Below are positions 12,702 through 63,878 of a DNA stretch of 64,000 nucleotides, in pieces. This DNA comes from a virus, in the IMG/VR virus record IMGVR_UViG_3300037262_000003, positions 46,054 through 110,053 of that record; one strand, given 5' to 3'. The position numbers and the translations under genes were made by a program. A model generated the notes under the pieces. The model was not told the origin of the DNA. It saw nothing but the letters and a program-made list of their open reading frames with translations, and searched no databases. Each line of letters begins with the position of its first letter. Within the stretch, counting starts at the first letter, position 1.

Positions 12702-13289
12702 TTAGAAGGATACTCCGGTGGTGACGTTGGTTCCTACTATGAGATCCCAACCCTCATGGGCCAGAGTCATCTGTGATACGAGAATCTGGTTTGCGCCAGC
12801 GTCAAGATCAGAGTAGGATACGGATGACGGCCATGCGTTGTAGACACGGAACCATGCGTTGATAGGAGCGGCATAGCCCGTTACAGGATGACCGAGGATC
12901 TGAACGTCAACAGTCGCACGGAACTCGCTGCCAGGCCCGTTCGGAAACTGGGCAGTATCATCAGTCGTAGCAGCAGCGGTGCCCTGCATGACCTGGAATA
13001 GCTGCTTGAGCCACGCCAGCTCGTACTGAGTGCCCACGGCAAGTCCACGGCTCAGAACGATCGGGCTGAAGTCAGCCTGCCCAGGAAGCTTCTGAGTTAC
13101 CGTGTTCATTGATCCGTCACGGTAAGCGATAACGCTCACAGTAACCGACAGCCCAGACACAGACATGAATCCGACACTGATAGCACCGCCCGCAGGAGGT
13201 GTGATGCTAACGACAAACTTGAAGTTACGTATCGGGTCTGTCTGAATGCGAGCCACACTGCTAGTCTGTGTGACCTGAATGTTACCGAT
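12702..13289 (-). CDS. Tail tube protein (T4 gp19-like)
   Basis: TDPIRNFKF, GFMSVSGL, YRDG, KLPGQADFSPIVLSRG, NAWP...LAHEG; start codon uncertain. Confidence 0.9.
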   Translation of the reverse strand: MGNIQVTQTSSVARIQTDPIRNFKFVVSITPPAGGAISVGFMSVSGLSVTVSVIAYRDGSMNTVTQKLPGQADFSPIVLSRGLAVGTQYELAWLKQLFQVMQGTAAATTDDTAQFPNGPGSEFRATVDVQILGHPVTGYAAPINAWFRVYNAWPSSVSYSDLDAGANQILVSQMTLAHEGWDLIVGTNVTTGVSF

Positions 13290-13713
13290 GGCCGTAGCCC
13301 CTTTCACGAGTGCGATGCCTATGGCAGTTGGCACACACGACTTCACATTTGGCTATCTCGCGCAGGAGACGTGGCATAGCGTATGTCTTCATAGCAGCTA
13401 CGTTTCCGGACTTCTCAAACCCTGGAAGGTGATCAAAGTCAAGAGCTTCCGGGTACCTATCGTACCCACAATCGGCACAGCCACTCTCTATCTTTATTCT
13501 ATCTATAAATGCTTGACGGTCGGCGTAAGCTTCGGGAGAGATTCGGCAGTACGTGGGATCATCTTCCCGCTTACTCTTGCGCCAGTCTTTCTTCCATTCC
13601 AGCGTTTCATACGACTCGTGACGCCCGTTGTGGCCGAAGACGCGACCGCAGTAGTTACCACGCTTCATGCGATGGTTACAGCGGTCGCTGTCTTCTAGCT
13701 TTTCGAACGCCAC
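13282..13713 (-). CDS. HNH homing endonuclease
   Basis: CADCG...ALDFDHL...EIAKCEVVCANCHRHRT. Confidence 0.85.
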   Translation of the reverse strand: MAFEKLEDSDRCNHRMKRGNYCGRVFGHNGRHESYETLEWKKDWRKSKREDDPTYCRISPEAYADRQAFIDRIKIESGCADCGYDRYPEALDFDHLPGFEKSGNVAAMKTYAMPRLLREIAKCEVVCANCHRHRTRERGYGHR

Positions 13714-17638: not shown

Positions 17639-18039
17639 TACTTCATCCTCGTCTTGTAACCCTTGTCGCCACGCTCTCCAAGGGAATCTCTTGCCTTCTG
17701 TTCATCAGGATTGCGGGCTGTTGACCACGAGTCGTGGACTGCATTAGGCTGTGCCGTAGGATTGTCACCCACGTCTACGGCAGGCAAGGGCATTCCTAGC
17801 CTTGCGGCTACTGCCGCCCGATGATGCCCGCCACCCTGGATCTGGTAGTTACCAGCACGGTCGTTGAACTTGACACCCACAGGAGTCTGAAAACCATTCT
17901 CCTTGACGTGCGACTCCAACTTGGACATGTACTCGGGCTCGCGGTTGTATAGCGTGTCAGCCACAGCGTGAAGGGACTTGCCCTTCACACCGGGGTCTGA
18001 GCCTACGACATGCTTGAACTGTTCAGGCGAGAACTCCAT
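17638..18039 (-). CDS. ParB/Srx-like N-terminal domain protein
   Basis: HVKENGFQTPV...GGHHRAAVAARLG. Confidence 0.7.
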   Translation of the reverse strand: MEFSPEQFKHVVGSDPGVKGKSLHAVADTLYNREPEYMSKLESHVKENGFQTPVGVKFNDRAGNYQIQGGGHHRAAVAARLGMPLPAVDVGDNPTAQPNAVHDSWSTARNPDEQKARDSLGERGDKGYKTRMK

Positions 18040-19001
18040 TAGACACCCCAGTTCGCAAACCAGGGAGAAGGCAGACCAGAGTTGTCGTCGTAGCGGTGAT
18101 CCACCGGAGGAATCTGACGTACCGGCCAGCGGTGGTCATCGTACTCGCGATCCTTGAACAGAGGAACGAGTCTTCCGGTTGTCCTAGACACACGACGCAA
18201 TGGCAGGGTCTCAGAACGGTAGAGCCCGACGTTGAGCTGTCCGCAGTAGTCCATGTACCGGGCCGTAAGGCCCTGGATCTGCTCCATGATCTGACGGTAT
18301 CTTGTGGTCCTGTCAATGACAGTGCCCTCAGCCGTCTGAACATTGGAATCACTGGCTGCATCATTAGCCAGAGCCCAGAATGCATTGATCGTCGTGAGCA
18401 TCTCGACTAGAGGTTCTTCGATAGCCGGTAGGTTCTGTAGCGTCTTGGTCTCTTCACGATACGAGTAGAACCCACGGGCGTCTAGGTAACGTTCGTTGAT
18501 CTCCTGCCCGTAGACATGCTGACGAGTCGAGTCCATTGCGATGATCGCAAGCTCGTAGTCAGAGAACAGAGACCAGGCCGACCCCACGATGATCAACGTT
18601 GAGTTCAGCGGAACAGGAGCGCCCAGGAAGATCTGCCCGTTAATGGTGTCGATAGCGTAAGCCGAGGCTGTGTCATCCTGCCAGTAGGCCGTGCCGCCAG
18701 AAACGGGAGCGTAATCTATGTTGTCCTGTAGGGCAGTGTAGAACCCCAGTTCATACGCGACCTGGTTGCCTGCGCCGTATGTGACGGTGCTCGACCACGG
18801 AGTAGCTGACGTGAAGTCCGCCAGTACCGTCTCTATGGCCCCTGAGACGACCGTGACGGCTAGAACAGAGGACCGGTTGACTTCCTGCTTGGGTAGGTCA
18901 TACCAGAGCGTCTGTCCGTCTCCTAGGGCCGTTGTACGGAACGGCGTAGGCGGGTCACCGATCTGGAATCGGACCCTGTGAATAAGATCCTTTAGATGCA
19001 T
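18039..19001 (-). CDS. Head-tail adaptor-like protein with CBM-like insert
   Basis: RVRFQIGD, LRRVSRTTGRLVPLFKDREYDD; insert PWSSTVTYGAGNQVAY...AYW. Confidence 0.6.
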   Translation of the reverse strand: MHLKDLIHRVRFQIGDPPTPFRTTALGDGQTLWYDLPKQEVNRSSVLAVTVVSGAIETVLADFTSATPWSSTVTYGAGNQVAYELGFYTALQDNIDYAPVSGGTAYWQDDTASAYAIDTINGQIFLGAPVPLNSTLIIVGSAWSLFSDYELAIIAMDSTRQHVYGQEINERYLDARGFYSYREETKTLQNLPAIEEPLVEMLTTINAFWALANDAASDSNVQTAEGTVIDRTTRYRQIMEQIQGLTARYMDYCGQLNVGLYRSETLPLRRVSRTTGRLVPLFKDREYDDHRWPVRQIPPVDHRYDDNSGLPSPWFANWGV

Positions 19002-19017
19002 CGGTTATCCCTTCGGT

Positions 19018-20109
19018 CTACTCACTAGGATACATGTAGTTCCAGCGATCAAATGCTAGCTGACGCATGTTGCCCTGGTAAGGAGCGCCTGCCACACACG
19101 CACTCGTGAGCGTTGACACCAGACTCGCCTCAGCATTGCAGGCAACCGTGATTGACGCCGTTACTCGCCCCGCATTAGGGTTAAGCGCTATGCCTACGGC
19201 GATGAGCGCAGGAATGACGTGCATCGTCGCGCCGACGTGTTGTCCGTGGCTACGCCCGGTGAAGAACGTAGGAGTCTGAGTGCTAAGAGCGCTTCTAAGA
19301 TGACCGCGCTTCCGATTAGCCGTAAACGTCGGGGACTGCGCGCTAGTAGCAGACCTTACGCGTCCTCGGATATGTACCGCCAGGAACGTAGGAATCTGGG
19401 TACTCGTAGCAGAGCGATAGTGCCCGCGAGTCCTTCCCGCAGAGAATGTCGGGCTCTGGTTGGAGGTAGCAGAGCGCTTTCGTCCGTGGATTCTGGTGGC
19501 AATGAAGTTCGGCGTTACACTCATTACCGCGCTGCGAACAATGTTCCCACCGGCTACGAGAGCCGTAGCCAGGAACGTAGGACTCACCGAAAGAGTGGCG
19601 TGTCTTCCGTGACCGTGAATCCTGGTGGACACGAATGAGGGAGTAATGCTCGACAGGGCAGACCTCACACGCCCGCGTGTACGTCCAGCATTGAACGTTG
19701 GCGTGAGCGTCAATGTTGCCTGACGTGGATGACCATGTAGCTTCGTGGTAACAAACGTAGGGTTTGGCGTCAATGTTGCGTGACGCCCATGTCCGTGAAT
19801 ACGTGTGGCCAGGAACGTCGGAGTGATAGCCGCGAGAGCTGACCTGACACGGCCTCTCGTGCGCCCGGCATTGAAAGTAGGAGTCGGAGTGAGAGATGCA
19901 CTGCGTGGGTGACCATGATGCTTTGTAGCGACAAACGTAGGACTCTGGGTGCTCAGCGCTGAACGGACACGACCTCTGATTCTGGTCACGTTGAAAGTCG
20001 GGGTTACCGACAGGGATGCTGAAGGCGTATGAGAACCGCTAGCCCCAACGTTACCGGGATTGGCCGAACCGGGCGACATGCTGCCCGGTGTCGCACCAAA
20101 GGATGTCAT
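19018..20109 (-). CDS. Basic 20-aa tandem-repeat protein (putative fibre/decoration)
   Basis: About 13-14 repeats of A-x5-PTF-x3-R-x-(H/R)G(H/R)-x-RS. Confidence 0.7.
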   Translation of the reverse strand: MTSFGATPGSMSPGSANPGNVGASGSHTPSASLSVTPTFNVTRIRGRVRSALSTQSPTFVATKHHGHPRSASLTPTPTFNAGRTRGRVRSALAAITPTFLATRIHGHGRHATLTPNPTFVTTKLHGHPRQATLTLTPTFNAGRTRGRVRSALSSITPSFVSTRIHGHGRHATLSVSPTFLATALVAGGNIVRSAVMSVTPNFIATRIHGRKRSATSNQSPTFSAGRTRGHYRSATSTQIPTFLAVHIRGRVRSATSAQSPTFTANRKRGHLRSALSTQTPTFFTGRSHGQHVGATMHVIPALIAVGIALNPNAGRVTASITVACNAEASLVSTLTSACVAGAPYQGNMRQLAFDRWNYMYPSE

Positions 20110-20114
20110 ATCGG

Positions 20115-20240
20115 TTACGCTATCTTAGACACTTCTAGGACTGCGCCTTCTTCAATCTTTATCTCATCACCAGAAGTGGTGCTCTGGACGGTCAACTGAA
20201 GTGTACCGGGTGCCGCCCAGTCGATCCTGACGCCGCCCAT
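20115..20240 (-). pseudogene. Probable relic C-terminus of the ancestral tail-fibre gene
   Basis: GTLQLTVQSTTSGDEIKIEEGAVLEVSKIA; native GC content resumes here. Confidence 0.45.
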
Positions 20241-23200
20241 TAGTTGACCCGCTTCCAGCAGCCGCCATTGATCGTTACCGACACGCCCGCAGCCGAGGGG
20301 GTCATGCCCACCATCATCTGCTCCGCGCCCGTGGTGACCACGGTGGTGAGCTGCTGGCCCATCGTGGTCAGGAAGTAGTTCATGTACAGCGACGCCGTGA
20401 CGCTCGCCTCGGTCGTGCTCAGGAACTGGACGATCGCCGAGTAGCGCATCGCCGCGCCCGTCACCGCCGCGCCCGCGTTCGGGTTCGCCGCCCCGGAGCT
20501 GACGAGGCTCGTCCCGGCGAGGCCGCCGTAGAAGACCTGCCAGGTGAGCGTCTGCGTGTCGACCGTGGTGGTCACGGTCCCCCACAGGTCCAGCTCCCAC
20601 GTCTGCCCGGCCGCGATGCTGCCGCCCGCGATCGTCGGCCCCGGGAACACGTCCACCGCCACCGTGCCGCCCGTGTAGGGGCCGCCGGGCAGCGAGGGGA
20701 TGTAGACGCTCCCGGGGTGAACGTGGCCCGCGTCGGCCGCCTTGCCGGTGGCACCTGCCGCCTGCGTGCCGAGGGGCTGGATGTCCGCCGCGGTCCCGTC
20801 CAGCTCCACCGCGCCCTGCGCGCTGGTCGTCGCCGCCGGCAGGTCGCCCGAGGCGATGGTGCCCCAGCCCGGCGCGGCGGAGGCGCTGCCCGTGCCCGTC
20901 TGGGTCAGGAACTTCTTCGTGGCGGCCGTGTTCCCGGCCAGCCGCGCCGCCGTGCCCGCCCCCGACTCGTACTCCAGGTCCCCGGTCGTCGTCATCGGCG
21001 ACAGGGCGTTGTACGCGGCGGCGGCCGTGATCGCGCCGGTCCCCCCGTTGGCGATGGCGAGCGCGTTGTTCTTCGCGAAGTCGGACGGCCCCGCGCTCTG
21101 CACGTACCAGGTGGTGCCGATGTAGACGACGGCGAAGGTGTACCCGGCCGGGATGGCGATGTTCCCGCTCGTCCCGAAGTTGCTCAGGGTCGCGCCGCTG
21201 CCGGGGGCCAGCGTGACGGAAACCGAGGCGGCGTTGGTGACCGTGTTGATCGAGCTGCCCGGCGGCGACGCGGGCAGCGTCAGCGTCTGCCCCGTGGTCG
21301 ACCCGGTGAAGACCGTCTCCTCGCCGGGCAGCAGCGTCGCCGTGGCGGTCCGCGCGGTCGCGTTGTTCAGGTCGCTCACCAGGGTCGCCTCAGCGCTGGT
21401 GATCGCGACGCCCTGGACCTTCCCAACGGTCGTCGCGCCCTGCGTGCCGGTCACGTCCCCGGCGAGGCTGCCGGTGAAGCTGCCCGCCGACCCGGTGATG
21501 TTCTCCGCGTTGGGCCCGTACCACAGCGACGTGTTCGTGTCCCAGAAGAACTGCCGGGACGAAAGCGCGGGGATCACGTCTGCTGTTCCGTCTGCGACGT
21601 TGCTTGTTCCTGCCGCTGCGAAGGTGAGTGCGTTCGCCGACTGGTTGACGACCGTCACCATCTGCCCGCTTGTCCCTGCTGTTGCGAGGATCAGCCCCGT
21701 GTACGCAGCCGCTGCTGTCACGGGCACGAACGACACCGAGGTCGGGATCGTCTGCCCGTTGGCTGTGAGCGCGGTAGGTCCGGCGTAGTTCCCGATCGCG
21801 AGCCCGTACGGCGTCTGTACCTGGGTGGGGAAGATGTTGGTCACGCTGGCGAGGACGGAGTCGCCGAGCACCTGCCCGTAGTACCCGAAGTTGCTGGTCT
21901 TGTTGCTGGCGGTGAACGGGTAGGCCCCGGCGGCGAAGGACAGGAGCCCGCCGCAGGCGAAGCTGTAGTTCCCGGTCGCCCCGAAGTAGATCGTGTACGG
22001 GGCCAGGAAGGTAGCGTCGTCCAGCTCGACGCCGATATTGAAGGTGCTGTCACTGATGAAGCTGTAGCCGGGGTCGGGCCCGGCGAGGGCGGTGTTGTTG
22101 CCGGTGATCCTCAACACGGCGTACTGAGTCGTAGAGGTGCTGAAATTACCGAAGATGCCGAGCTGGACGGCGTTCTGGGCCAGAGCGCCGTTCTGGAAGA
22201 CGACGCCGTCACCCCCGTGGCCGTTGGCGTTGGAGACCGTGAAGGAATCCATGACGAGGCCGGAGCCGCCCTGCCAGATCTCAAACCCGGCCTGGCAGTC
22301 GATCAAATACCAGGCGGAGTTGCACCAGCCCTGGGTGATCATGTACTGGATGAGGTAGTACATGTCCACGGTCGCGGTGGTGACCTGGCTGGTGAATTGG
22401 AAGCTCGCCGTGCCTTCGGTGGCGTTAGCCCACGAGCTCTGCCAGTACACGTCGAACGTGTTCGCGCCGATCGTCACATTGGACGCGTAGAGCGTGCCCG
22501 GCGGGGTCACGCCGGTCGAGTTGGCCATCCAGACCATGACCTCAAGGCCGTTGGTGGCGTTGTTCGTCGGGTCCGGTGCCGTGTTGATCCAATGGTCATG
22601 GACGCAGTCCCAGATGTCGGAGCCGCCCGCGCCGAGCGTGACCGTATTCGATACGACGACCTGGCCCGGTGTGATGCTAGAGCAGACCAGCGGGAACGGA
22701 TTGAGCGGGCTCAGCGACCCGTACTGGTTGCCGACGTAAACAGACGGGTAGGCGGCCGGGGAACCTGGGTGGGTGTTGGCGAGGGAGGAGGCGGCGACCG
22801 AGAACGTGGTGGGCAAGCCGATCGTGTAATCGACGGTGAATGCCGCTGACGAGTCGTAACGGTTGCTCTGGATGACATAAGGCCCGTCATTGACCTGCTG
22901 TAGTGCGGTCAGCGTGCCGCTGCCGCTGCCGTACTGGCCGGAGCCGGTCCCGTTCTGGTTGATGAAGATATTGAGATTCATCCGGTCGTAAGATCCGGTC
23001 GCATTACCCGAGGTGTTCGCCGTGTTGTCGAAGACGACATGCTGCGTGCAGTTCTGGGCGAAGATCTCGCCCTCCATCTGCTCGCACCACGAATACTGGT
23101 TGTCGAACCAGATGCCCTTGCTCGTGGTGCCTGCGAAGAAGTTCTGGACGCCGACATCGAATTTTAGCTTGAAGATGTCGCCGACATGGACGCCGCTGGA

Positions 23201-23866
23201 ATTCCCGGTCGCATGCGTCCCGTCGACCGTCAGGCCGAGGAAGCCGCCGCCGTTGACCGTCTTGCTCGACCACAGCGTCGAATCGTAAATACGGAATACA
23301 TCACCCGTGCCGTACCACTCGATGTTAGAAGACCACTTGCCGTCTCCTAGGAAGTACACTGCGGTTCCCGCTACATTCTGCGTGACCGTCGTGGACACCT
23401 TGTATGTACCGGCAGGTATGTAGACGACACCACCTCCCTTGGCCACTACGGCGGCACTCGCGGCCTGGAATGCTGACGTGGAGTCGCTTACTCCTGTCTT
23501 GTCAGCTCCTAGCTGAGTGACGTTGACGATCACCGCCTGCAAGGTCTGAATAGAAGCCCTTGTGAGTACCTGCTTGACGGTGAAAGGCGTTGTATGAGCT
23601 ACCGGGGTAGTTCCGTCTGCTCCTCGCGTCACTGTCGCCGTGTAAGGCCCGGTGCCAGTGACATTCGTAAAGAGCACCTTCTCAGTCTCAACAGACGCGA
23701 GAGAATCAGCGGCATAGCACTGGGTCGCGGGGGTCGAGGAACTAGAGATCGTCGGCAGAGTAGACGCTGATAGCGTCCACGTCTCTACCGTTCCGGCAGC
23801 GGGCGCGGTAGTGCCACCGCTGGATACCGTCGCCGTCGCGTCGTTCGCGAAAACCTCTATTGCCAT
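20240..23866 (-). CDS. Tailspike/fibre: pectin-lyase-like beta-helix with inserted GH12 endoglucanase domain
   Basis: NVTQLGADKTGVSDSTSAFQ...GGGVVYIPAGTY; GH12 motifs YVIQSNRY, YPSVY, LEVMVW, WYL..QAGFEIW. Confidence 0.85.
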   Translation of the reverse strand: MAIEVFANDATATVSSGGTTAPAAGTVETWTLSASTLPTISSSSTPATQCYAADSLASVETEKVLFTNVTGTGPYTATVTRGADGTTPVAHTTPFTVKQVLTRASIQTLQAVIVNVTQLGADKTGVSDSTSAFQAASAAVVAKGGGVVYIPAGTYKVSTTVTQNVAGTAVYFLGDGKWSSNIEWYGTGDVFRIYDSTLWSSKTVNGGGFLGLTVDGTHATGNSSGVHVGDIFKLKFDVGVQNFFAGTTSKGIWFDNQYSWCEQMEGEIFAQNCTQHVVFDNTANTSGNATGSYDRMNLNIFINQNGTGSGQYGSGSGTLTALQQVNDGPYVIQSNRYDSSAAFTVDYTIGLPTTFSVAASSLANTHPGSPAAYPSVYVGNQYGSLSPLNPFPLVCSSITPGQVVVSNTVTLGAGGSDIWDCVHDHWINTAPDPTNNATNGLEVMVWMANSTGVTPPGTLYASNVTIGANTFDVYWQSSWANATEGTASFQFTSQVTTATVDMYYLIQYMITQGWCNSAWYLIDCQAGFEIWQGGSGLVMDSFTVSNANGHGGDGVVFQNGALAQNAVQLGIFGNFSTSTTQYAVLRITGNNTALAGPDPGYSFISDSTFNIGVELDDATFLAPYTIYFGATGNYSFACGGLLSFAAGAYPFTASNKTSNFGYYGQVLGDSVLASVTNIFPTQVQTPYGLAIGNYAGPTALTANGQTIPTSVSFVPVTAAAAYTGLILATAGTSGQMVTVVNQSANALTFAAAGTSNVADGTADVIPALSSRQFFWDTNTSLWYGPNAENITGSAGSFTGSLAGDVTGTQGATTVGKVQGVAITSAEATLVSDLNNATARTATATLLPGEETVFTGSTTGQTLTLPASPPGSSINTVTNAASVSVTLAPGSGATLSNFGTSGNIAIPAGYTFAVVYIGTTWYVQSAGPSDFAKNNALAIANGGTGAITAAAAYNALSPMTTTGDLEYESGAGTAARLAGNTAATKKFLTQTGTGSASAAPGWGTIASGDLPAATTSAQGAVELDGTAADIQPLGTQAAGATGKAADAGHVHPGSVYIPSLPGGPYTGGTVAVDVFPGPTIAGGSIAAGQTWELDLWGTVTTTVDTQTLTWQVFYGGLAGTSLVSSGAANPNAGAAVTGAAMRYSAIVQFLSTTEASVTASLYMNYFLTTMGQQLTTVVTTGAEQMMVGMTPSAAGVSVTINGGCWKRVN

Positions 23867-23875
23867 ATTGACCTA

Positions 23876-24247
23876 CTAAGAAGCTGTTGGAAGAGTGATT
23901 GTGATAGGAGTTATTGACAGCGTGTCAGTCGTCGCCATTGTTGCCGATGAAGACAGTGTGATCGAGAACTCAAAGGTTCCAGATGTTGACGCAGACCAGA
24001 AGCTAACGTCAGTCACGACCTCGTTGTTGGTACCTGCCCAAGACGGCCATGCCGGTGTGGTAGTGGCGCTGATAGAACCAGCGGAAGCGCCAGTTGCCCA
24101 TGCAACAGCCTCACGCGTGGTTGTGCTAGAAACGTTGGAGGTACCAGCAGTGCCCGGATCTCCGGTGTGGAGCTGCGCAAACAACGCTGAGGTTGTCCAG
24201 TTGTTCAACGCTGTGTCGGCGTTGAGTACAGAAAGTCCGTCAGCCAT
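23876..24247 (-). CDS. Small tail-fibre-associated virion protein
   Basis: AQLHTGDPGTAGTSN...REAVAW. Confidence 0.65.
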   Translation of the reverse strand: MADGLSVLNADTALNNWTTSALFAQLHTGDPGTAGTSNVSSTTTREAVAWATGASAGSISATTTPAWPSWAGTNNEVVTDVSFWSASTSGTFEFSITLSSSATMATTDTLSITPITITLPTAS

Positions 24248-24255
24248 GATGTCTC

Positions 24256-24798
24256 CTAGGAGATGGTGTTGAAGGTGACCTGGAGGTTGAACTGGCTTGT
24301 GCCCGGATTACCCGTAGCCGTTCGCCTGATCCAGACAGGAAGAACCTGTCCTGGTCCTATATTACCAGCCTCTAGTCCGCCCGATACTGTGGCAGAAGGG
24401 CTGGAGTAACTGGAGATACCAGCGGGTGCGACATACGGGGAAGAGATTTGGAGAGCCTGCTGTGAGCCCGAGTTGTAATTCGATACGCCGGTAGGGTCAA
24501 GTGCGTAGGCCCAGGTAATACATGAGCTAGTCACAGATGATGTGGGAATCCACACTGTCGGGGCGATCATCGTGTCAGTGTCGTCACTGTTGTAGACGAA
24601 GACGCACTGATAGTCGATCTGCTGGGCTGCGTTCTGCGGGCCAGTAAGATCAGGGAATAGATTGTTCAGGACAGTGGAAAGGTTGACCTGCGTAGTCGAG
24701 CAGTACATTCCATTGGAGTTGTACACAGAGCCCGGAGTTGAATATCCACTGTCAGCGTTCGGTGCTGACAGAAGATACTGAACCTCGTCAATGTTCAT
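24256..24798 (-). CDS. Virion protein, unknown
   Basis: LNNLFPDLTG...DYQCVFVYN...VWIRR. Confidence 0.55.
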   Translation of the reverse strand: MNIDEVQYLLSAPNADSGYSTPGSVYNSNGMYCSTTQVNLSTVLNNLFPDLTGPQNAAQQIDYQCVFVYNSDDTDTMIAPTVWIPTSSVTSSCITWAYALDPTGVSNYNSGSQQALQISSPYVAPAGISSYSSPSATVSGGLEAGNIGPGQVLPVWIRRTATGNPGTSQFNLQVTFNTIS

Positions 24799-25382
24799 TA
24801 GCTCACTCCGATTTCAAAGGTCCCAGGAGCGACCTGAATGCTCTGAGTGCTGAGAACCTGCTGAGCCACGGGAACCTGCCATACGTACAGCAGAAGCCCG
24901 TTCAGCACGGTGCTGGCGATGGGAGTGTAGGAGCTTGAGTCAGCGAATGGCACGCCGATCATGGCAGCCCACCCGATAGGAGCGGCCTGGTTAGCCGTGT
25001 AAGGCCCGAAGGTCACGGTGTTAGTGTTCGTGAATGACGTGGGCTCGGATGCATTAGCAGCACCGAATGTGATGGGCTGACGTAGATAACCCGTCGTGGT
25101 GTCCTCAATGGCGGCGATGTCAGAGATGTTGACTACCAGGCCACCACCAGGACCGGCCACGGTGGGGTCACTAGTCAGAAGACATAGGTAACGTTCATAG
25201 GGGCCAGTAACCCAGGTCGAGGTGTGCGGATCGTATACGTTCAGGACTGATCCCGAGGTGTTGATCCACTCCTGTCCCACAATCCAAGTTCCAGGTGCGG
25301 ACGCACCGATAAAAGGAGTGGCGATGCCGCTGATCTTGTTAGCGACGTACTCCGCCCCGTACTGGGTTAGCTGGCCAGCCAT
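24798..25382 (-). CDS. Tail-fibre-associated virion protein
   Basis: YLCLLTSDPT...GYLRQPITF...NTNTVTFGP. Confidence 0.6.
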   Translation of the reverse strand: MAGQLTQYGAEYVANKISGIATPFIGASAPGTWIVGQEWINTSGSVLNVYDPHTSTWVTGPYERYLCLLTSDPTVAGPGGGLVVNISDIAAIEDTTTGYLRQPITFGAANASEPTSFTNTNTVTFGPYTANQAAPIGWAAMIGVPFADSSSYTPIASTVLNGLLLYVWQVPVAQQVLSTQSIQVAPGTFEIGVS

Positions 25383-25387
25383 ATGTC

Positions 25388-25627
25388 CTACTCAGAGAAG
25401 TTGTAGGTGGATACTGTGCATGGAAGAATGCTGACGTTATCGTGGAACGTCCATGAGACGCCGTCGTGCGCATCCCACCACGGGGTCCACGGCTGGTACG
25501 GAACAGCGGGCTGCTCGACCTTGACACGATCCAGGGTGAACTGGTACGCTGCAACCATGCCCTCAAGCTCGGCTACCCTAACCTTGAGGTCGTTGATCTC
25601 GGCTTCTAGCTCTGCCTTTGTCTTCAT
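25388..25627 (-). CDS. Hypothetical protein
   Basis: AAGGAGG RBS; short coiled coil. Confidence 0.6.
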   Translation of the reverse strand: MKTKAELEAEINDLKVRVAELEGMVAAYQFTLDRVKVEQPAVPYQPWTPWWDAHDGVSWTFHDNVSILPCTVSTYNFSE

Positions 25628-25684
25628 TAGTCCTCCTTAACGGGACCACGATGGTTAAGCGTCAACATAGTACAGTAACCGACA

Positions 25685-26173
25685 TCATTCATAGATATAT
25701 CCGAGGTTCGCCAGGTGGTCAGCATGATCTGCATCGACCGTGTACCAGCGTCCCTCCTCGAATGTGAAGTTACGGAGACCGCCCAGGATCGGCGGCCTGA
25801 TGTACCCGCCGAACTCATTAAGTTCACCTGCGAAGACGACCTCACGCCCGAACGTCTGGTCCTCGATGGGGTAGTTCACACGGATACGACGCTTCGGAAG
25901 CTCAAGTTCGACTTCCTCAACGACTACCTCAGTGGTCGCTTCACCATCGACCTCGACAACCCGCTCGACAGGACGCTTGACAACCGGCCTAAGCTGAGTA
26001 GAGTAGTCCACATCAGTGTTGAGCTTAACTTCGCGATCAGACACAAGTGCGTCCTGAACCTGACGCTTGGACTCCTCGTGCTCGCGGGCAGCCTCTGTTG
26101 CTAGCTGCTGGCCACGGACACCGGTAAGGTCACCTGGACGCTTGCGCTGAGTACGGTTAGTTGCTGGAGGCAT
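25685..26173 (-). CDS. Hypothetical protein (head module)
   Basis: RPGDLTG, FEEGRWYTV...HL..LGYI; RBS AAGGGG. Confidence 0.6.
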   Translation of the reverse strand: MPPATNRTQRKRPGDLTGVRGQQLATEAAREHEESKRQVQDALVSDREVKLNTDVDYSTQLRPVVKRPVERVVEVDGEATTEVVVEEVELELPKRRIRVNYPIEDQTFGREVVFAGELNEFGGYIRPPILGGLRNFTFEEGRWYTVDADHADHLANLGYIYE

Positions 26174-26235
26174 TTCGTTCCCCTTGTCGTGTACGATTCT
26201 TGACTCCAGCATACCAGTTTCGCAAAGGAGGAAAC

Positions 26236-26598
26236 ATTAACAGTCTCTATCATGCCAAGAGCAGCGCCCGAAAGTGGGGCGGCCACTGGACGGACTACAT
26301 TGACATCCATGAGTTCATCGACAGTTCCAAGCACATCATCGGAGACGCCCGGCACAGGAGCATCTACCATCACACCGAGGGTGTCTGGTTGACACAGCGC
26401 ATCTTCGGGCGTACTCTGGTGCGTGGCAGGATCGAGATCCCGGTCAGGGAGATCGCTGAGCTTCACATCATCGAGGATCTGGGGTGGCTTCCGAGCCCGA
26501 AGGATTACATCGACAACATGGAGCTTCGCCCGTGGATGGGCGGGGACAAGACCAAGCGCATCATCGCGCTAAGTGACTTCACAGGAGGAAACAAGTGA
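26236..26598 (+). CDS. DUF6915-like His-rich phage protein (probable ATT start)
   Basis: HAKSSARKWGG, IHEFIDSSK, RHRSIYHH, ELHIIEDLG. Confidence 0.7.
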   Translation: MNSLYHAKSSARKWGGHWTDYIDIHEFIDSSKHIIGDARHRSIYHHTEGVWLTQRIFGRTLVRGRIEIPVREIAELHIIEDLGWLPSPKDYIDNMELRPWMGGDKTKRIIALSDFTGGNK

Positions 26599-27128
26599 CT
26601 GATACGACTCGCACCTTTGCAGGCATCCCGATGTCAGGCGACTTCAACGACGGGTACAGCCGTCCCGAGCAGTACAAGCTGGAGGACTTCCTGCCGATCT
26701 TCAACGCGGTAGTCCAGAACACGCACGTCACCCGTTTCGGCTGGCACCAGTACACCCCGTACTTCAACGACGGTGAGGAGTGCGTCTTCGGTGCTTCGAG
26801 TGTCTGGATCGAGACTGACGCTGATAACGTCAGCAAGGACGAGGAGAACGACGACTACTACAGCCATGACGAGTGGTACAGCATGGACTACGGAGATGGA
26901 TACCTGGCCAAGCATGACTGGAACGGGCCAGGTCACACCGAGGTCTACGCAAACAACGAGCCCTGGGTTGCGTTCCTGCGCGAGCAGGCTTATGCTCTGT
27001 CCGGTGCGGTAGATGGCGGTCACTTCGACAACGTGCTGCTGGATAACTTCGGCAACCATGTAGAGATCACTGTCTACCCTCGTGAAGACAGCCCGAGGAT
27101 CGAGCTTGAGACGTACTCGCATGACTAA
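26595..27128 (+). CDS. Acidic hypothetical protein
   Basis: WHQYTPYFNDGEECVF, FGNH; GGAGG RBS. Confidence 0.7.
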   Translation: MTDTTRTFAGIPMSGDFNDGYSRPEQYKLEDFLPIFNAVVQNTHVTRFGWHQYTPYFNDGEECVFGASSVWIETDADNVSKDEENDDYYSHDEWYSMDYGDGYLAKHDWNGPGHTEVYANNEPWVAFLREQAYALSGAVDGGHFDNVLLDNFGNHVEITVYPREDSPRIELETYSHD

Positions 27129-27465
27129 GCCCATCGTGGCAGGAGGGCACGTAATGCCAGAGCCCTCCTGCCCGCATGGTTACACTAGATCAGATCTCGA
27201 AGCACTGTTCGGTGAAGCCCTACCGAAGTTCAACAAGTGGATGACCGGTCAGACTATGATGATCTGCGAGGCCACCCAGTATCACTACGACCGCAAACAC
27301 GGAGAGTTCTGCGGCCATGCGGAAGGTGACGAGGAGACCTGGCAGTGCGACTACGTGGGCACGGGATACTACGAACCTTCGGAGTGTGCTGACAACCCTC
27401 ACGGTGTGGTGGCTTACGTCTCTGATGTGGTCAGATTCGTCCGGGGCCTGCCCATTCTGGACTAG
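27121..27465 (+). CDS. Hypothetical protein
   Basis: Overlaps the upstream stop; FNKWMTGQT, HGVVAY..DV.RF. Confidence 0.6.
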   Translation: MTKPIVAGGHVMPEPSCPHGYTRSDLEALFGEALPKFNKWMTGQTMMICEATQYHYDRKHGEFCGHAEGDEETWQCDYVGTGYYEPSECADNPHGVVAYVSDVVRFVRGLPILD

Positions 27466-27625
27466 CTCGGGTACATGTAATTCCATCTATCGATGGAAAG
27501 TTGTCGGATCTGTCCCTGCAAAGGCTGTAGGGCAACACACTCGATCGTCATATCAGAGACGAGCGCGGATTGTGCGTTGGCCTCTATGATGAGGATCGTA
27601 GTCATGGTCATGCTCCAAGTTTAGC

Positions 27626-27654
27626 TTGACAGGACACCCCAAGCTGTGTAGGCT
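27626..27654 (+). promoter_or_regulatory. Sigma70-type promoter
   Basis: TTGACA-N17-TAGGCT. Confidence 0.75.
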
Positions 27655-27668
27655 TGGGGTGTCTTTTT
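27633..27668 (+). terminator. Intrinsic terminator overlapping the promoter
   Basis: GACACCCCAAGC/GCTTGGGGTGTC stem followed by a T run. Confidence 0.75.
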
Positions 27669-27689
27669 ATCCAACAAACAGGAGGATAT

Positions 27690-28664
27690 ATGAAGAAGCT
27701 ACTAGCCGCTGTTGGTGTTATCGCCATGTCAGCGGCTCTCGGGCTTAGCGCTGCACCGGCTTTTGCGGACACGTCCAGTAGCATTCCCAGCGCAGGGTGG
27801 ATCAGCACGGAGACTGTGCCCGACTACATTCTTGCCAACGATGGACTGAATGTCACATACACGCCCGGAACGGTGGAGTACTCTGCCACCTGGAATCCCA
27901 GGTTCTCTGCCCAGTGGCAGGATGCGTATCTCGTAACGGGATACTCTCACGGTGCCAACTCGACTGCCCAGGCAGGCTCATACGGCAAGTATGTGTACAA
28001 GATGCCCCTTCGAGTTGACGCAGAATCCCAGTTCACAGGCAGTATGACATACAGCACCAGTTCTGACTTCGACGGCCGGCCGGGCTGGGACATCTGGCTG
28101 TCACCAAGCGGAAGTCAGAATGTTGACACGACTGCCGCGACACTGGAAGCCAACCCCCGTACTGTTGAGGTTCTTCTCCAGCCCGGCACCCTCTCTTATG
28201 AGTCCAACCCAGGTTACGACAGGATCTTTTACGGAGTCGGGTCTCTGTCTGACGTGAATATCGGTGAGTACGTCATCAAGGCCCTTGACTACCTCGGGCT
28301 GGACCCGTCAGAGTATTACTGGGCGGCGATCGACGGCGGCGCTGAGATGACACGGGGATCGTTCACTATGGACAGCTACTCGCTATCAGTCGTAACTGAT
28401 CAGACGGTGGGTTCCAAGACTGTCAAGATCCCCGACTGGGGTGCGACGAAGCCCGCGAGTCACAAGGCTGTCAAGACTTACAAGGCTGTGGTGAAGGCTG
28501 TCAAGAAGGTCACCATCAAGGCAACTCCCGTGGCTGCCACAGTCACTGCCGCACAGCCTTCCTCAGGCATCTCAGGGACAGTCCTAGGACTGTTCGGATT
28601 GGGTGCTCTGCTGGCTGCTGCGACTGGCTTCCTGCTCTGGAGGCGTTCGCGTCGTCGGGGTTGA
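27690..28664 (+). CDS. Secreted, C-terminally membrane-anchored GH12-like protein
   Basis: Signal peptide ...PAFA|D; MPLRVD, GWDIWL, VEVLL, YWAAIDGGAEM...MDSYS; TM helix followed by RRSRRRG. Confidence 0.7.
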   Translation: MKKLLAAVGVIAMSAALGLSAAPAFADTSSSIPSAGWISTETVPDYILANDGLNVTYTPGTVEYSATWNPRFSAQWQDAYLVTGYSHGANSTAQAGSYGKYVYKMPLRVDAESQFTGSMTYSTSSDFDGRPGWDIWLSPSGSQNVDTTAATLEANPRTVEVLLQPGTLSYESNPGYDRIFYGVGSLSDVNIGEYVIKALDYLGLDPSEYYWAAIDGGAEMTRGSFTMDSYSLSVVTDQTVGSKTVKIPDWGATKPASHKAVKTYKAVVKAVKKVTIKATPVAATVTAAQPSSGISGTVLGLFGLGALLAAATGFLLWRRSRRRG

Positions 28665-28689
28665 CGTTCGTTGTCATGCCCTGTAGACT
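28661..28689 (+). promoter_or_regulatory. Sigma70-type promoter
   Basis: TTGACG-N17-TAGACT. Confidence 0.7.
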
Positions 28690-28717
28690 TCTCTTACCAA
28701 CGAAAAAGGGAGGCAAG

Positions 28718-28873
28718 ATGGCCGACAAGACAGACGAAAAGATCATTTGCGGGCACACCTGGAAGCAGAAGTACGAGGATGTGTGGCACGTGAACCACAC
28801 GTGCAAGATCAAGATCGTGCCCGGCGTGCCCCACACTGGCTTTCACATCTGTTCATGTGGAAGGGTTGACTAA
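28718..28873 (+). CDS. Cys/His microprotein 1
   Basis: GGGAGG RBS; C..C..H..H.C.C. Confidence 0.6.
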   Translation: MADKTDEKIICGHTWKQKYEDVWHVNHTCKIKIVPGVPHTGFHICSCGRVD

Positions 28874-29046
28874 TGGCAGCTCACCAGCACGACTACAGGT
28901 ACAGCGGTCCTCACGGGGAGACGACCACAGAGAAGGGCAGAACATGGAACGTCATGTACGCCCGATTCGTGTGCAAGAACCGGGAGACGTTCTGCCCTAA
29001 GCCCGTGATGGACAAGCTCATCCGAAAGACGGAGGTCAAGAAGTGA
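28873..29046 (+). CDS. Cys/His microprotein 2
   Basis: TAATG coupling; MAAHQHDY...CKNRETFCP. Confidence 0.6.
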   Translation: MAAHQHDYRYSGPHGETTTEKGRTWNVMYARFVCKNRETFCPKPVMDKLIRKTEVKK

Positions 29047-29234
29047 AGACCGAGCACAACTGCAAGAAGGCTGGCACATGCTCAAGGGTTGACAAGCCCG
29101 GCAGTCCGTGCAAGAGTCAAGACAAGGTTCCCAGCATGGGAGCCATCCACAAGCCCGATCACGATAACGGGTGCCACGCAGGCTGCTGGCCTGACGCTGG
29201 TGGTCCACCAACTAGTCACCGTAAGAGGCGCTAA
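29043..29234 (+). CDS. Cys/His microprotein 3
   Basis: GGAGG RBS, GTGA overlap. Confidence 0.55.
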   Translation: MKTEHNCKKAGTCSRVDKPGSPCKSQDKVPSMGAIHKPDHDNGCHAGCWPDAGGPPTSHRKRR

Positions 29235-29362
29235 TGAGCTGCCCTGGCGAAGCGCCGGACACACTGGTATGCAATGAGCAAGACACGCACGATCCGCATT
29301 TCTGGCAGGAGCCACATTCGGGCATAACCATGTGGTGTCCGGGTCATACTGAGATCCCATAG
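29234..29362 (+). CDS. Cys/His microprotein 4
   Basis: TAATG coupling; CNEQDTHDPH...WCPG. Confidence 0.6.
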   Translation: MSCPGEAPDTLVCNEQDTHDPHFWQEPHSGITMWCPGHTEIP

Positions 29363-29370
29363 GAGGAACT

Positions 29371-29577
29371 ATGTCAGCACCAAAGCCGCGTTGGGCCAAG
29401 CCCGACGCTCCCAAGTCTGCCAAAAAGTGCCCGCCCCATGACATGAAGGAGGTTCACAAGTCCGTGGGCTTCAAGGGCTGGGGCAAGAACAAGAAGAAGA
29501 TCACAACCAAGTACTTTGAGTGCAAGCGCCCAGGGTGCGACCACGAGGACACCGACGTGACGGAGGTAACAATCTGA
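29371..29577 (+). CDS. Cys/His microprotein 5
   Basis: AGGAGG RBS; CPPH...CKRPGC. Confidence 0.6.
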   Translation: MSAPKPRWAKPDAPKSAKKCPPHDMKEVHKSVGFKGWGKNKKKITTKYFECKRPGCDHEDTDVTEVTI

Positions 29578-29777
29578 TGGGACTAGACGACATGGCGAAG
29601 AAGGCCCTCGCAAGCGCCGTACACAACATCAGGAAGGGCGCTAGCAGGCACTACTGCCCGGCCACCAAGGGAAATCACAAGATGGGTCATTCCGATATGG
29701 GCGGGGGCTGGAAGGTTCTCCACTGCACCGAGTGCGGATGGTTCGACCCCAAGAAGCACCAGCACTTCTTGGGGTAG
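29577..29777 (+). CDS. Cys/His microprotein 6
   Basis: TGATG coupling; CP....H...CTECG. Confidence 0.6.
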   Translation: MGLDDMAKKALASAVHNIRKGASRHYCPATKGNHKMGHSDMGGGWKVLHCTECGWFDPKKHQHFLG

Positions 29778-29785
29778 GAGACACT

Positions 29786-29944
29786 GTGCCTAGGATCAAC
29801 ACGTGGCACTGCGGCAAGAAGGACGACCACCCTGGGCACCACTACCGCAGGCCGGGAAAGCTTCACGGGCGACCCGCTGTGATCAGGCTGTGGTGCCCAG
29901 GTGGCCCTTTCAAGCCGCAGGGCAAGAATCCCCCGGAGGAGTGA
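29786..29944 (+). CDS. Cys/His microprotein 7
   Basis: AGGAG RBS; CGKKDDHPGH...WCPG. Confidence 0.6.
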   Translation: MPRINTWHCGKKDDHPGHHYRRPGKLHGRPAVIRLWCPGGPFKPQGKNPPEE

Positions 29945-29945
29945 C

Positions 29946-30074
29946 ATGGCTGATCTATCGAAGTGTACTTCCAAGAAGTGCGTTCACACCAAAAAGGGCG
30001 GGCACTGCGATAACGCCTGGTGTGGTAACTGGTGGGGGGCTTGCTTTGTACACAACGGGATGATCAAGTCTTGA
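29946..30074 (+). CDS. Cys/His microprotein 8
   Basis: GGAGGAG RBS; MADLSKCTSKKCVH...HCDNAWC...CFVH. Confidence 0.6.
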   Translation: MADLSKCTSKKCVHTKKGGHCDNAWCGNWWGACFVHNGMIKS

Positions 30075-30099
30075 CACTGGCCACAGCATCTGATAGGAT
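30071..30099 (+). promoter_or_regulatory. Sigma70-type promoter for a leaderless mRNA
   Basis: TTGACA-N17-TAGGAT-N6-ATG. Confidence 0.7.
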
Positions 30100-30105
30100 A
30101 TAGCC

Positions 30106-30264
30106 ATGATCAAGATTGTCGAAATGTCCGAAGAGGACGCAGCCACCATTAACAAGTTTGCTGGTGGTGGCACCGAAATTGTACAGTACCTGGGAGCGGG
30201 CCAGGCAGCGGCGCATGTAGAACCCATTGAGGAGGGTGATGGCGAAGCCAGGCCCGAAGCCTGA
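30106..30264 (+). CDS. Small acidic leaderless ORF
   Basis: MIKIVEMSEED...; ATG at the predicted transcription start. Confidence 0.5.
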   Translation: MIKIVEMSEEDAATINKFAGGGTEIVQYLGAGQAAAHVEPIEEGDGEARPEA

Positions 30265-30784
30265 TCCTTCTAAGCCCAACAGCAGGTACAACCCGGCCTC
30301 CCGGCACACACCGGGAGGCTCATCTATCTGTGGGTCCGGGCATGAATGGGTCGAAGGTTCGTATAAGCTACGCGGGGATGGCAAGAAGATTTGCCTGATC
30401 TGCATCGAAGAACGCAAGGGAGACACGTGTAAGGCTGGCCACAGTCGGGAAGAGTTCCAGAACAAGTACGGAGCATGTCGGGCGTGCCAGGCTGAGAAGA
30501 TGGTCGCACGGAGGCTCATGGAGAAGTATGGTTTGACACCTGAGGCACTTGAGGATATGATCAAGGCACAGGACGGACGGTGTGCAGTATGTAGGGAAGA
30601 GTTCGACGCAGAGAAGCACAATGGAATCTGCGTAGATCACGACCACTCGTGCTGCCCCGGAGAAAAGACTTGCGGAAAGTGCGTAAGAGGGATACTATGT
30701 GATTGCTGCAACAAGCTTCTAGGAAACGCTCGTGATAGCGTGGAGATCTTGGAAGCAGCAGTCAAGTATCTGTTGGAGAACTGA
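30239..30784 (+). CDS. Endonuclease VII-family (homing-type) endonuclease
   Basis: KYGLT...QDGRCAVC...VDHDH...RGILCDCCNKLLG. Confidence 0.85.
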   Translation: MAKPGPKPDPSKPNSRYNPASRHTPGGSSICGSGHEWVEGSYKLRGDGKKICLICIEERKGDTCKAGHSREEFQNKYGACRACQAEKMVARRLMEKYGLTPEALEDMIKAQDGRCAVCREEFDAEKHNGICVDHDHSCCPGEKTCGKCVRGILCDCCNKLLGNARDSVEILEAAVKYLLEN

Positions 30785-50005: not shown

Positions 50006-50034
50006 ATGTTACTACGAAAATCTAGACCTGTCAA
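50006..50034 (-). promoter_or_regulatory. Promoter for a tRNA block
   Basis: TTGACA-N17-TAACAT. Confidence 0.7.
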
Positions 50035-63567: not shown

Positions 63568-63878
63568 ATACTATCACCCGTGCCAGGGGGGTGTCAACCC
63601 CCGTTGTGCTCACTCAGAGTGACATTTACTGGCCTGCCACTATGTTATACGCCACTGCATTGTGTGTCAAGTTGACATTATGCGTGTGAGATGGTTGACA
63701 TTTACAGTCATTCCACGTGTCCAGCGCTGCCAACACCCAAAGCCCAAAGCCCAAAGCCCAAAGCCCAAAGCTTATCTCATGTGGTACCAGGTGTCAAGTC
63801 CGTTGTCGGCTGCGCTCCGTGAAGAACTGCTTCTGTTTCCATGCCCGAAGTCTAGCGGATAGCGGCCTGTAGTGTCAA
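63568..63878 (-). promoter_or_regulatory. Four tandem consensus sigma70-type promoters
   Basis: TTGACA at 63597, 63670, 63797 and 63878, with TAGTAT, TAACAT, TAAGCT and TAGACT at 17-18 nt spacing. Confidence 0.75.
63736..63770. repeat. (CCCAAAG)x5 tandem repeat
   Basis: Five perfect copies. Confidence 0.95.

Follow-up and report, generated by a model that had tools for sequence, protein, structure and literature searches.

We have analyzed two genes in a 64,000-nucleotide stretch of viral DNA, referred to below as the window, which comprises bases 46054-110053 of the IMG/VR record IMGVR_UViG_3300037262_000003 (110,053 bp, rated complete). One gene, on the minus strand at 20240-23866, encodes a tailspike of 1208 residues that contains a domain of glycoside hydrolase family 12 (GH12). 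The other, on the plus strand at 27690-28664, encodes a protein of 324 residues that is predicted to be exported and tethered to the cell envelope, and that has the GH12 fold; we call it the anchored protein. An earlier reading of the nucleotide sequence, made without database searches (the sequence-only reading), had regarded the two as a paired system. The phage would enter an actinomycete host via a β-glucan, and then display a glucanase on the infected cell to remove or mask that receptor. We find that both proteins are GH12 in structure, but that they appear to have separate histories.

The open reading frame (ORF) of the tailspike belongs to the structural operon, where it is flanked by homologues of genes 81 and 82 of the Streptomyces phage LuckySocke. 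Its translation is a mosaic, comprising an N-terminal virion-attachment part, a pectate-lyase-like β-helix, the GH12 cassette, a middle part and a shuffled distal fibre module. The sole Pfam match for the full-length protein is the pectate-lyase-like β-helix PF12708 at residues 113-311, which is nearly complete ahead of the GH12 cassette, and the PHROG families for tailspike (2234) and pre-neck appendage (4775) match at residues 101-163. The database gene call for the tailspike (P0066) begins at an internal GTG, residue 170. The ATG start is preferable, because the Pfam and PHROG matches begin at residues 101-113.

The GH12 cassette occupies residues 309-549 of the tailspike (22220-22942, minus strand), with Gly/Ser-rich linkers at both edges. 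Comparison of the sub-region 22229-22906 with the family profile Glyco_hydro_12 (PF01670) gave a score of 55.2 bits (cut-off 27, E = 1.4e-14), and a genome-wide scan gave 54.2 bits. Using phmmer against solved structures, the cassette aligns end to end with the GH12 enzymes 7mkr, 1oa4, 1nlr and 1h0b, with E values from 1e-24 to 1e-16. In the alignment with 7mkr the nucleophile motif LEVMVW (nglEvmvWm) is paired with TEIMIW, the acid/base motif AGFEIWQGG is identical, and HDHW, the Asp motif, aligns with YDIW. Judged by these matches and motifs, the cassette is a genuine GH12 domain with both catalytic Glu motifs intact, and its full-length alignment to solved GH12 chains implies a β-jelly-roll fold (clan GH-C). 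The catalytic motifs are the same as those of the GH12 domain of Acidothermus cellulolyticus GuxA (7mkr/7mks), 1oa4, CelB2 (1nlr) and Rhodothermus marinus Cel12A (1h0b). Those enzymes are either secreted in free form or built into cellulase systems as modules, whereas here the cassette is located inside a phage tailspike of 1208 residues. The tailspike resembles phage depolymerases (PF12708; PHROG 2234 and 4775) in having an N-terminal attachment part with a right-handed β-helix, a place in the structural operon and shuffled distal modules. Unlike them, it contains an extra, complete GH12 catalytic domain. No match was found in the PDB by phmmer for residues 547-1208.

Only three proteins bearing this cassette were found in a collection of 5.8 billion. 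It is carried at 67% identity by P0067 (1702 residues, on an ENA contig of 60.8 kb), where it is joined to GH26, and at 51% identity by P0068 (1039 residues, on a contig of 7.4 kb), where it is accompanied by Kelch-type repeats. The likeness of both proteins to the tailspike is confined to residues 309-549. Neither the cassette nor the whole tailspike gave a tblastn match in 50,697 phage records, and pattern scans of 2.9 million IMG/VR contigs revealed no further copy of the cassette. The parts on either side of it have other relatives. The N-terminus of the tailspike is 43-50% identical to the N-termini of the metagenomic spikes P0071 and P0072, and P0072 matches residues 2-313, diverging exactly at the start of the cassette. 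The distal fibre module (residues 788-1206; 20249-21505, minus strand) is common to many large metagenomic proteins at 56-88% identity, on contigs of 17-186 kb. By this pattern of sharing the tailspike is a mosaic, in which the GH12 domain is a mobile cassette. The C-terminus of P0067 is weakly similar to a motif of the tailspike N-terminus, ...TVTRGxDGT..AH.

The composition of the tailspike gene changes along its length. The GC content of third codon positions (GC3) has a mean of 0.633 (standard deviation 0.068) in the 42 larger ORFs of the window, and is about 0.60 in the capsid gene. Taken in bins of 100 codons, codons 1-200 of the tailspike (23267-23866, minus strand) have a GC3 of 0.62-0.64, while that from codon 201 to the end is 0.82-1.00; the distal fibre module spans the same 0.82-1.0. 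The jump at about codon 200 argues that the tailspike beyond this point, the cassette included, was acquired recently from a high-GC source. By the same measure the first 200 codons, which encode the N-terminal part for virion attachment and the beginning of the β-helix, are native.

The 324 residues of the anchored protein comprise a signal peptide (1-26), a GH12-like domain (about 28-248), a stalk rich in Lys, Ala, Val and Thr (about 249-291), a transmembrane segment (292-317) and the tail RRSRRRG. Single-sequence searches of Pfam, PHROGs and the PDB (phmmer) gave no match, and no similarity to the tailspike module was detected by BLASTP. The protein nevertheless belongs to a family. A word-indexed search identified seven close homologues with 44-64% identity, and an exhaustive profile search identified 56 relatives. 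The family profile and alignment were built from 48 members, which are only 20-40% identical. This profile matches solved GH12 chains with E values from 9e-15 to 1e-7, and PF01670 is matched directly by 7 of the 48 members. When the family was compared with that of the tailspike cassette using hhalign, the two aligned with 94% probability (E = 1.4e-7) in the same register; a family of 8 sequences compared with the single tailspike domain gave the right register at an E value of 0.18, which is not significant.

The alignments place D134 (in GWDIW), E160 (in TVEVLL) and E219 (in GGAEM) opposite the Asp, the nucleophile Glu and the acid/base Glu of GH12, respectively. In terms of motifs, GWDIW of the family is paired with YDIW, T-V-E-I/V-L/M with T-E-I-M-I-W, and G-A-E with G-F-E. 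D134, E160 and E219 are invariant in 8 close homologues. In the 48-member alignment D134 again shows no variation, and conservation of E160 and E219 is 90% or more.

An AlphaFold2 model calculated from the 48-sequence alignment has a mean predicted local distance difference test score (pLDDT) of 83.5, exceeding 90 in the core and low in the stalk. The top ranks of a Foldseek search with this model are all GH12, with a few GH11 xylanases appearing from about rank 35. Superposition with VIA-align on the best GH12 structures gave Z = 19.6-18.6, with a root mean square deviation of 2.3-2.9 Å over 184-196 residues. The Z scores for GH12 extend from 19.6 to 15.5, and those of GH11 xylanases do not exceed 15.2. 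A model calculated from 8 sequences had a pLDDT of 54.5, and its structural matches were still GH12 only. A feature search of the ESM Atlas provided no usable match, its low-confidence model giving a template-modelling score of only 0.45-0.50 against the GH12 cluster. On the basis of the modelled structure, the anchored protein is a very divergent GH12-fold protein (β-jelly-roll, clan GH-C), nearer to GH12 than to GH11. It has the same jelly-roll fold and the same Asp/Glu/Glu triad as GuxA, 1oa4, CelB2 and Cel12A, but it is shorter after the nucleophile strand, is without the flanking aromatics, scores under the Pfam cut-off and has a membrane anchor.

How is the protein held at the envelope? 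The signal peptide, as read from the sequence and a hydropathy scan, consists of MKK, a hydrophobic core and AFA↓D. The scan gave two segments, residues 1-26 and 292-317, the second followed by the basic tail. The product is thus a predicted Sec-exported type I membrane protein. An alternative reading as a lipoprotein was rejected, the signal peptide having no Cys. The transmembrane segment and basic tail are present in 7/7 full-length close homologues. In 6 of the 48 family members, all distant homologues, a PASTA wall-binding domain is found in place of the transmembrane anchor, and this exchange argues that envelope tethering is a recurring trait of the family. The profile for LPXTG anchors (TIGR01167) scores 14.1 bits for the anchored protein, compared with a cut-off of 15.9, and 16.6 for P0004; the match runs from profile position 3 and lacks the L-P. 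At the position of the LPXTG motif the homologues have variously QPSSG, QPKSG, ASGSG, HKSNA and NHGRS. Attachment by sortase is unlikely, because there is no conserved sorting motif and the L-P is missed. A plain C-terminal membrane anchor is more likely, and by either route the domain would stay at the envelope.

Translation of the anchored gene starts at the ATG at 27690, with the Shine-Dalgarno sequence AGGAGG at 27680-27685. A TTG at 27654 was rejected as the start, since it falls within the promoter and hairpin. The promoter, TTGACA-N17-TAGGCT (27626-27654, plus strand), was read directly and is one of a class, TTGACA-N16-18-TAGNNT, that is present at 11 sites in the window compared with 0.24 expected; none of 100 shuffled sequences reached 11. 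Examples are 25977-26004, 27626-27654, 30071-30099 and 63849-63878. The structural region has only three copies, beginning at 25977, 27626 and 30071, each ahead of a plus-strand accessory gene. We take TTGACA-N17-TAGGCT to match the consensus for the principal sigma factor of Streptomyces.

The promoter is combined with a terminator. A hairpin with a perfect 15-bp stem followed by UCUUUUUA, a U-run in the RNA, lies at 27631-27668 on the plus strand, with a calculated folding energy of −27.4 kcal/mol (z = −6.26). It overlaps the promoter spacer and the −10 element, the latter being located in the loop and 3′ arm of the hairpin. This overlap suggests that a single element of 40 bp ends one transcription unit and starts the next, and the hairpin should stop transcripts of the upstream plus-strand genes. 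The strand of the anchored gene is opposite to that of the flanking head (capsid) and neck/tail genes. Because a site of the promoter class lies behind a terminator and before a plus-strand accessory gene, the anchored gene is predicted to be its own transcription unit with a host-type promoter; we infer that it is expressed early. The individual elements described in the sequence-only reading have therefore stood up well. The profile and AlphaFold-Foldseek comparisons that it had proposed identify both proteins as GH12 (the cassette by hidden Markov model, the divergent anchored protein by family profile and structural model), and the Sec signal, the C-terminal helix with its basic tail and the separate promoter on the other strand are all borne out.

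The phage itself has cultured relatives. The major capsid protein shares 64-66% identity with its counterparts in the Streptomyces phages LuckySocke, Alone3, GiJojo, BRock and pSt2308, and identities to Streptomyces phages are 57% for the portal and 55% for the terminase. The gene order of LuckySocke is kept in the window, with terminase, portal, head-neck, sheath, tube and baseplate J genes in synteny. The five phages are myoviruses of about 112-116 kb, close to the window phage in size and GC content. BRock (112.5 kb, 52.3% GC) is the closest relative in culture, and has been described as a virulent myovirus of Streptomyces without lysogeny genes (PMC7453282). By these comparisons the window phage is a 110-kb virulent-type myophage of the BRock/LuckySocke kind. 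Because its capsid and structural genes are akin to those of Streptomyces phages, its host is presumed to be a Streptomyces-like actinomycete, and the actinomycete host of the sequence-only reading fits with this. Unlike the window phage, the BRock group has no homologue of either the GH12 tailspike or the anchored gene. The tailspike of LuckySocke is unrelated to that of the window and is placed between LuckySocke genes 83 and 85, and LuckySocke has no opposite-strand accessory island between its capsid and neck genes.

We then have to ask if the two GH12 genes have travelled together. The GC3 of the anchored gene is 0.649, the native composition of the window. A homologue is found in L002, a viral fragment of 28.5 kb (26% complete) with a major capsid protein 89% identical to that of the window. 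L002 has the anchored gene in the same place, with 60% identity (BLASTP, 333 residues). However, between the homologues of 24256-24798 and 18039-19001, L002 has genes for proteins of 199 and 283 residues, not the tailspike and the 363-residue protein encoded there in the window. No GH12 was found in this slot or on the rest of the 28.5-kb contig, which, representing 26% of a genome, leaves room for such a tail protein outside it. Neither slot protein of L002 belongs to a Pfam family; the one of 283 residues resembles DUF4082 by eye only. A further fragment, L003, has the anchored gene on a contig that ends ahead of the tail region. L002 and L003 are the only relatives found in the viral scans.

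Outside this lineage the family is thinly spread. A scan of 185,579 species genomes for the anchored family revealed a single relative, L004. It lies on a contig of 70% GC from a Nocardiopsaceae metagenome-assembled genome, apparently chromosomal, beside helicase-nuclease, MarR and antitoxin genes, and its product ends in a PASTA domain. Scanning metagenomes added L007 and L008 (37-45% identity), which have a different, phage-like context of 62-64% GC, L007 being from an unrelated actinophage. Ku-like and HNH genes are located there, and structural genes are not found close by. In L007 the GH12-like gene is about 1.5 kb from a stand-alone gene with a peptidase-type lysin domain (10636-11328, minus strand), resembling 50031-50795 of the window. 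Neither the anchored gene nor the GH12 tailspike was found by tblastn in the 50,697 phage records.

Taking the distribution as a guide, the anchored family is a branch of GH12 that is associated with the envelope and belongs to actinobacteria and the phages that infect them, and in the BRock-like peat lineage the transmembrane-anchored version predates the GH12 tailspike. On composition, synteny and distribution, the relatives being fragments, the two genes are of independent origin and not co-inherited, because one has foreign and the other native GC3, because the L002 slot lacks GH12, and because relatives of the anchored gene occur in unrelated contexts. The structural half of the proposed pairing therefore stands, there being two GH12-fold proteins, one in the virion and one anchored, but the idea of a co-evolved receptor system is not supported by these comparisons. 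Co-occurrence in related phages, which had been put forward as a check on the pairing, is not observed; L002 has the anchored gene with no GH12 in the slot or contig, and the cultured relatives have neither gene.

The explanation that we favor, tentatively and at somewhat less than an even chance, is that the anchored protein is an accessory, envelope-tethered β-glycan hydrolase acting on a glycan of the host wall. From the folds, motifs, export, anchoring and transcription signals, mosaicism and distribution set out above, we infer substrate, activity, timing and benefit to the phage as follows. An older accessory gene of the lineage would be transcribed alone from its host-sigma-type promoter. 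The product would be exported by Sec and tethered by its C-terminal transmembrane helix with the basic tail in the cytoplasm, and the stalk of about 45 residues would keep a streamlined GH12-fold domain in the zone of the wall. There it could act as an active retaining β-glycan hydrolase, cutting a host-made envelope glycan as this emerges at the hyphal membrane of the infected cell, and thereby remodelling the cell surface during infection. One plausible consequence would be loss of the receptor, so that later phages are excluded or progeny are protected from debris, and such a role would be independent of the GH12 tailspike. The virion-borne cassette, for its part, would bind and cut a β-1,4-glucan-type polymer on the host surface during adsorption.

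Several points weigh against the assignment of the anchored protein as a hydrolase of host wall glycan. Neither the whole protein nor its core matches any Pfam family, even at an E value of 10. It is without the Trp that follows the nucleophile (E-V-L-L-Q compared with E-I-M-I-W). The aromatic residue after the acid/base Glu is likewise absent (the replacements being M/T there and Q/L at the nucleophile site), and in the profile alignment there are about 17 fewer residues after the nucleophile strand. Because these flanking aromatics and residues are missing, the cleft may be remodelled, or the protein may be a glycan binder only. A host-glycan substrate fits with a 45-residue stalk that holds the domain inside a thick wall, but this is a matter of geometry only. 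The host is assigned by kinship as the sole basis, and the L002 genome may have a GH12 tail protein outside the fragment. Lastly, glycoside hydrolases carried by peat viruses are usually read as auxiliary metabolic genes (PMC6786970).

The altered cleft leads directly to one alternative, that of a non-catalytic, lectin-like GH12 fold masking a surface glycan or a host protein. The loss of aromatics beside both catalytic Glu residues, the deletion of about 17 residues after the nucleophile strand and the score under the Pfam GH12 threshold would all be consistent with this. Yet the Asp and both Glu residues are at least 90% conserved in 48 members at 20-40% identity, which would be hard to explain without catalysis, and we consider a purely binding role very improbable. 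If the protein is an enzyme, it might instead be an accessory to lysis or release, or a remodeller of the wall, weakening wall glycan from inside for the endolysin or for escape from hyphal pellets. Export and the membrane tether would place it at the wall, its cellular relatives carry the peptidoglycan-binding PASTA domain, and the L007 homologue lies close to the lysin-domain gene noted above. Against this, no lysin or holin adjoins the gene in the window, the small ORFs beside it contain no transmembrane segments in the hydropathy scan, and the peptidase-domain gene is 22 kb away. Moreover the promoter is of the host-sigma class, not that of the late structural operon, and we know of no GH12 enzyme that cuts peptidoglycan. 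A function in lysis is improbable on balance. A third possibility looks outward from the cell. Soil virus-encoded glycoside hydrolases have been interpreted as auxiliary metabolic, and one GH5 endomannanase has been shown to be active (PMC6786970). The anchored protein could similarly be the product of an auxiliary metabolic gene, a surface β-glucanase that frees sugars from plant β-glucan, or from soluble pieces of it, for the infected actinomycete, and the tailspike GH12 might then bind the plant debris where the hosts live. Metagenomes from peat and permafrost do contain the phage, typical GH12 enzymes are cellulases or xyloglucanases (PDB titles), and P0067 joins the same cassette to GH26, a mannanase family. 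But from a short membrane stalk beneath the thick wall of a Gram-positive cell, insoluble plant polymers would be poorly accessible, and the anchored protein has no carbohydrate-binding module. The GH12 cassettes occur in large tail-like modular proteins, where enzymes normally target the host surface, and the virulent BRock, without lysogeny genes (PMC7453282), would leave little time for metabolic gain. We regard the metabolic role as rather unlikely.

This leaves the coupled function that was originally envisaged, in which both GH12 proteins act on one host β-glucan, for example the CslA/GlxA tip glycan. The tailspike would use it for entry, and the anchored enzyme would strip it from the infected cell, giving superinfection exclusion and preventing progeny from being trapped on lysed cells. 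Both proteins have the GH12 fold with catalytic residues intact. Each gene is absent from the 50,697 deposited phages, and the cassette from 2.9 million IMG/VR contigs. Because two very rare GH12-fold genes meet in one genome, their joint presence is unlikely to be pure chance, and it hints at a common host glycan that is cut by GH12-type enzymes. A host-type promoter apart from the late operon is often found for early exclusion genes, and the tether would put the enzyme where nascent host glycan emerges. However, the GH12 part of the tailspike is the recent import and the anchored gene the older, native one; in L002 the anchored gene is retained and the syntenic slot has no GH12 tailspike; and the anchored protein has relatives both in a second phage lineage and on an actinobacterial contig. 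In addition, the two domains are only remotely related and their clefts differ, so that the same substrate is not implied. Searches of the literature gave no paper tying receptor-destroying enzymes to phage superinfection exclusion, none linking the CslA glycan to phage adsorption, and, for GH12 in phage tails, none, the matches being concerned with GH120 and GH129. We therefore think it unlikely, if still worth keeping in mind, that the two proteins form one system.

The proposed hydrolysis of host wall glycan by the anchored protein has partial parallels in known systems. Two lipoproteins, Llp of phage T5 and Ltp of Streptococcus phage TP-J34, act on the receptor of the phage that encodes them, by blocking or altering it. 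Like the anchored protein they are exported and tethered to the envelope, and have a promoter apart from the late genes. Llp and Ltp bind the receptor or block DNA entry, whereas the anchored protein has a GH12 fold; to our knowledge no protein of the Llp/Ltp type is a glycoside hydrolase. A second parallel is provided by the membrane or periplasmic endoglucanases associated with glycan synthases, for example BcsZ from bacterial cellulose operons, KORRIGAN of plants and CslZ of Streptomyces (GH8, GH9 and GH6, respectively). These share with the anchored protein an endoglucanase-type fold at the outer face of the membrane, where β-glucan emerges. They are encoded by the host beside synthase genes, while the anchored gene is encoded by the phage and has no synthase nearby.

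Tailspike depolymerases are well known, and a GH12 cassette within them is, as judged from its sequence, new in comparison with the 50,697 deposited phage genomes. It points to a β-1,4-glucan-type surface polymer of a peat actinomycete as the target of the phage. The anchored protein defines a branch of GH12 that is divergent and tethered to the envelope, and that the standard models of the family have overlooked. This branch spans several actinophages and one PASTA-bearing member on an actinobacterial metagenome-assembled contig, and its substrate may be a wall glycan. A cellulase gene of a peat virus is normally assigned to the auxiliary genes for carbon degradation. In this phage one copy is clearly part of a virion, and the anchored copy is more likely to be directed at the host envelope than at plant carbon. 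If receptor destruction were to prove true, it would represent a novel way for a phage to exclude superinfection and a bacterial counterpart of the influenza neuraminidase or haemagglutinin-esterase, and the cellulose-like tip glycan of filamentous actinomycetes would become directly testable as a phage receptor.

The region is represented in environmental data. Positions 26000-30000 of the window are present in peat and permafrost metagenome runs from many studies, and contigs at least 99% identical to the region occur in 4 peat metatranscriptome libraries from 4 studies. Contigs from these RNA libraries cover parts of the GH12 cassette (X12, 22047-22779; X17, 22559-22773) and of the anchored gene (X18, 27899-28095; X19, 27851-27995). 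They are taken as evidence of presence only, since strand, level and timing are not readable from them, and bins without coverage are no evidence either way. Comparison of the region with phages by megablast gave one 57-bp match, which is chance-like.

The anchored gene is preceded by an island of plus-strand accessory genes (26161-27465), with a promoter of the same class at 25977-26004. The first encodes a DUF6915/phrog_8143 protein (26161-26598, E = 4e-39), the next a phrog_9564 protein (26595-27128), and the third a protein of 127 residues (27082-27465) that also adjoins the anchored gene in L002. Between the island and the promoter of the anchored gene is an ORF of 49 residues (27462-27611, minus strand), oriented away from the anchored gene. 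It is a stand-alone copy of a 44-residue C-terminal module (...RQL.DRWNYMYPS; 52-55% identity over 44 residues, E = 1e-11) that occurs three times. The other copies are at 19018-19150 (minus strand), at the end of the 363-residue protein, and at 5095-5230 of L002 (minus strand), at the end of the 283-residue protein. The stand-alone copy marks an earlier recombination among tail-fibre genes next to the anchored gene, and the module may have a conserved function in docking or recombination of such genes.

The 363-residue protein itself (19018-20109, minus strand) is encoded directly downstream of the tailspike and fills the slot together with it; in L002 and LuckySocke there are other genes at this place. 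It consists of about 8 tandem basic repeats of about 40 residues each (...S-P-T-F-x-A-x-R-x-R-G-x-x-R-S-A...), with the DNA repeat families D1 and D2 lying in its gene, and it ends in the 44-residue module ...RQLAFDRWNYMYPSE. It has no match in Pfam.

Two further sets of genes were observed in the window. A stand-alone protein of 254 residues (50031-50795, minus strand) has a peptidase-type lysin domain of the kind found in lysin-active tail proteins (PHROG 329, 25111 and 1015). The annotated endolysin of LuckySocke has no homologue in the genome of the window phage, and because of this the 254-residue protein may be the lysin of this phage. Adjoining the capsid gene is a gene of endonuclease VII/HNH type with its own promoter (30227-30784, plus strand). 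L002 has three endonuclease VII/HNH paralogues elsewhere and one LAGLIDADG-like ORF (1983-2687, 12789-13502, 18909-19469 and 7848-8471), and the endonuclease genes of the window and of L002 are probably homing endonucleases that are mobile within this group of phages.

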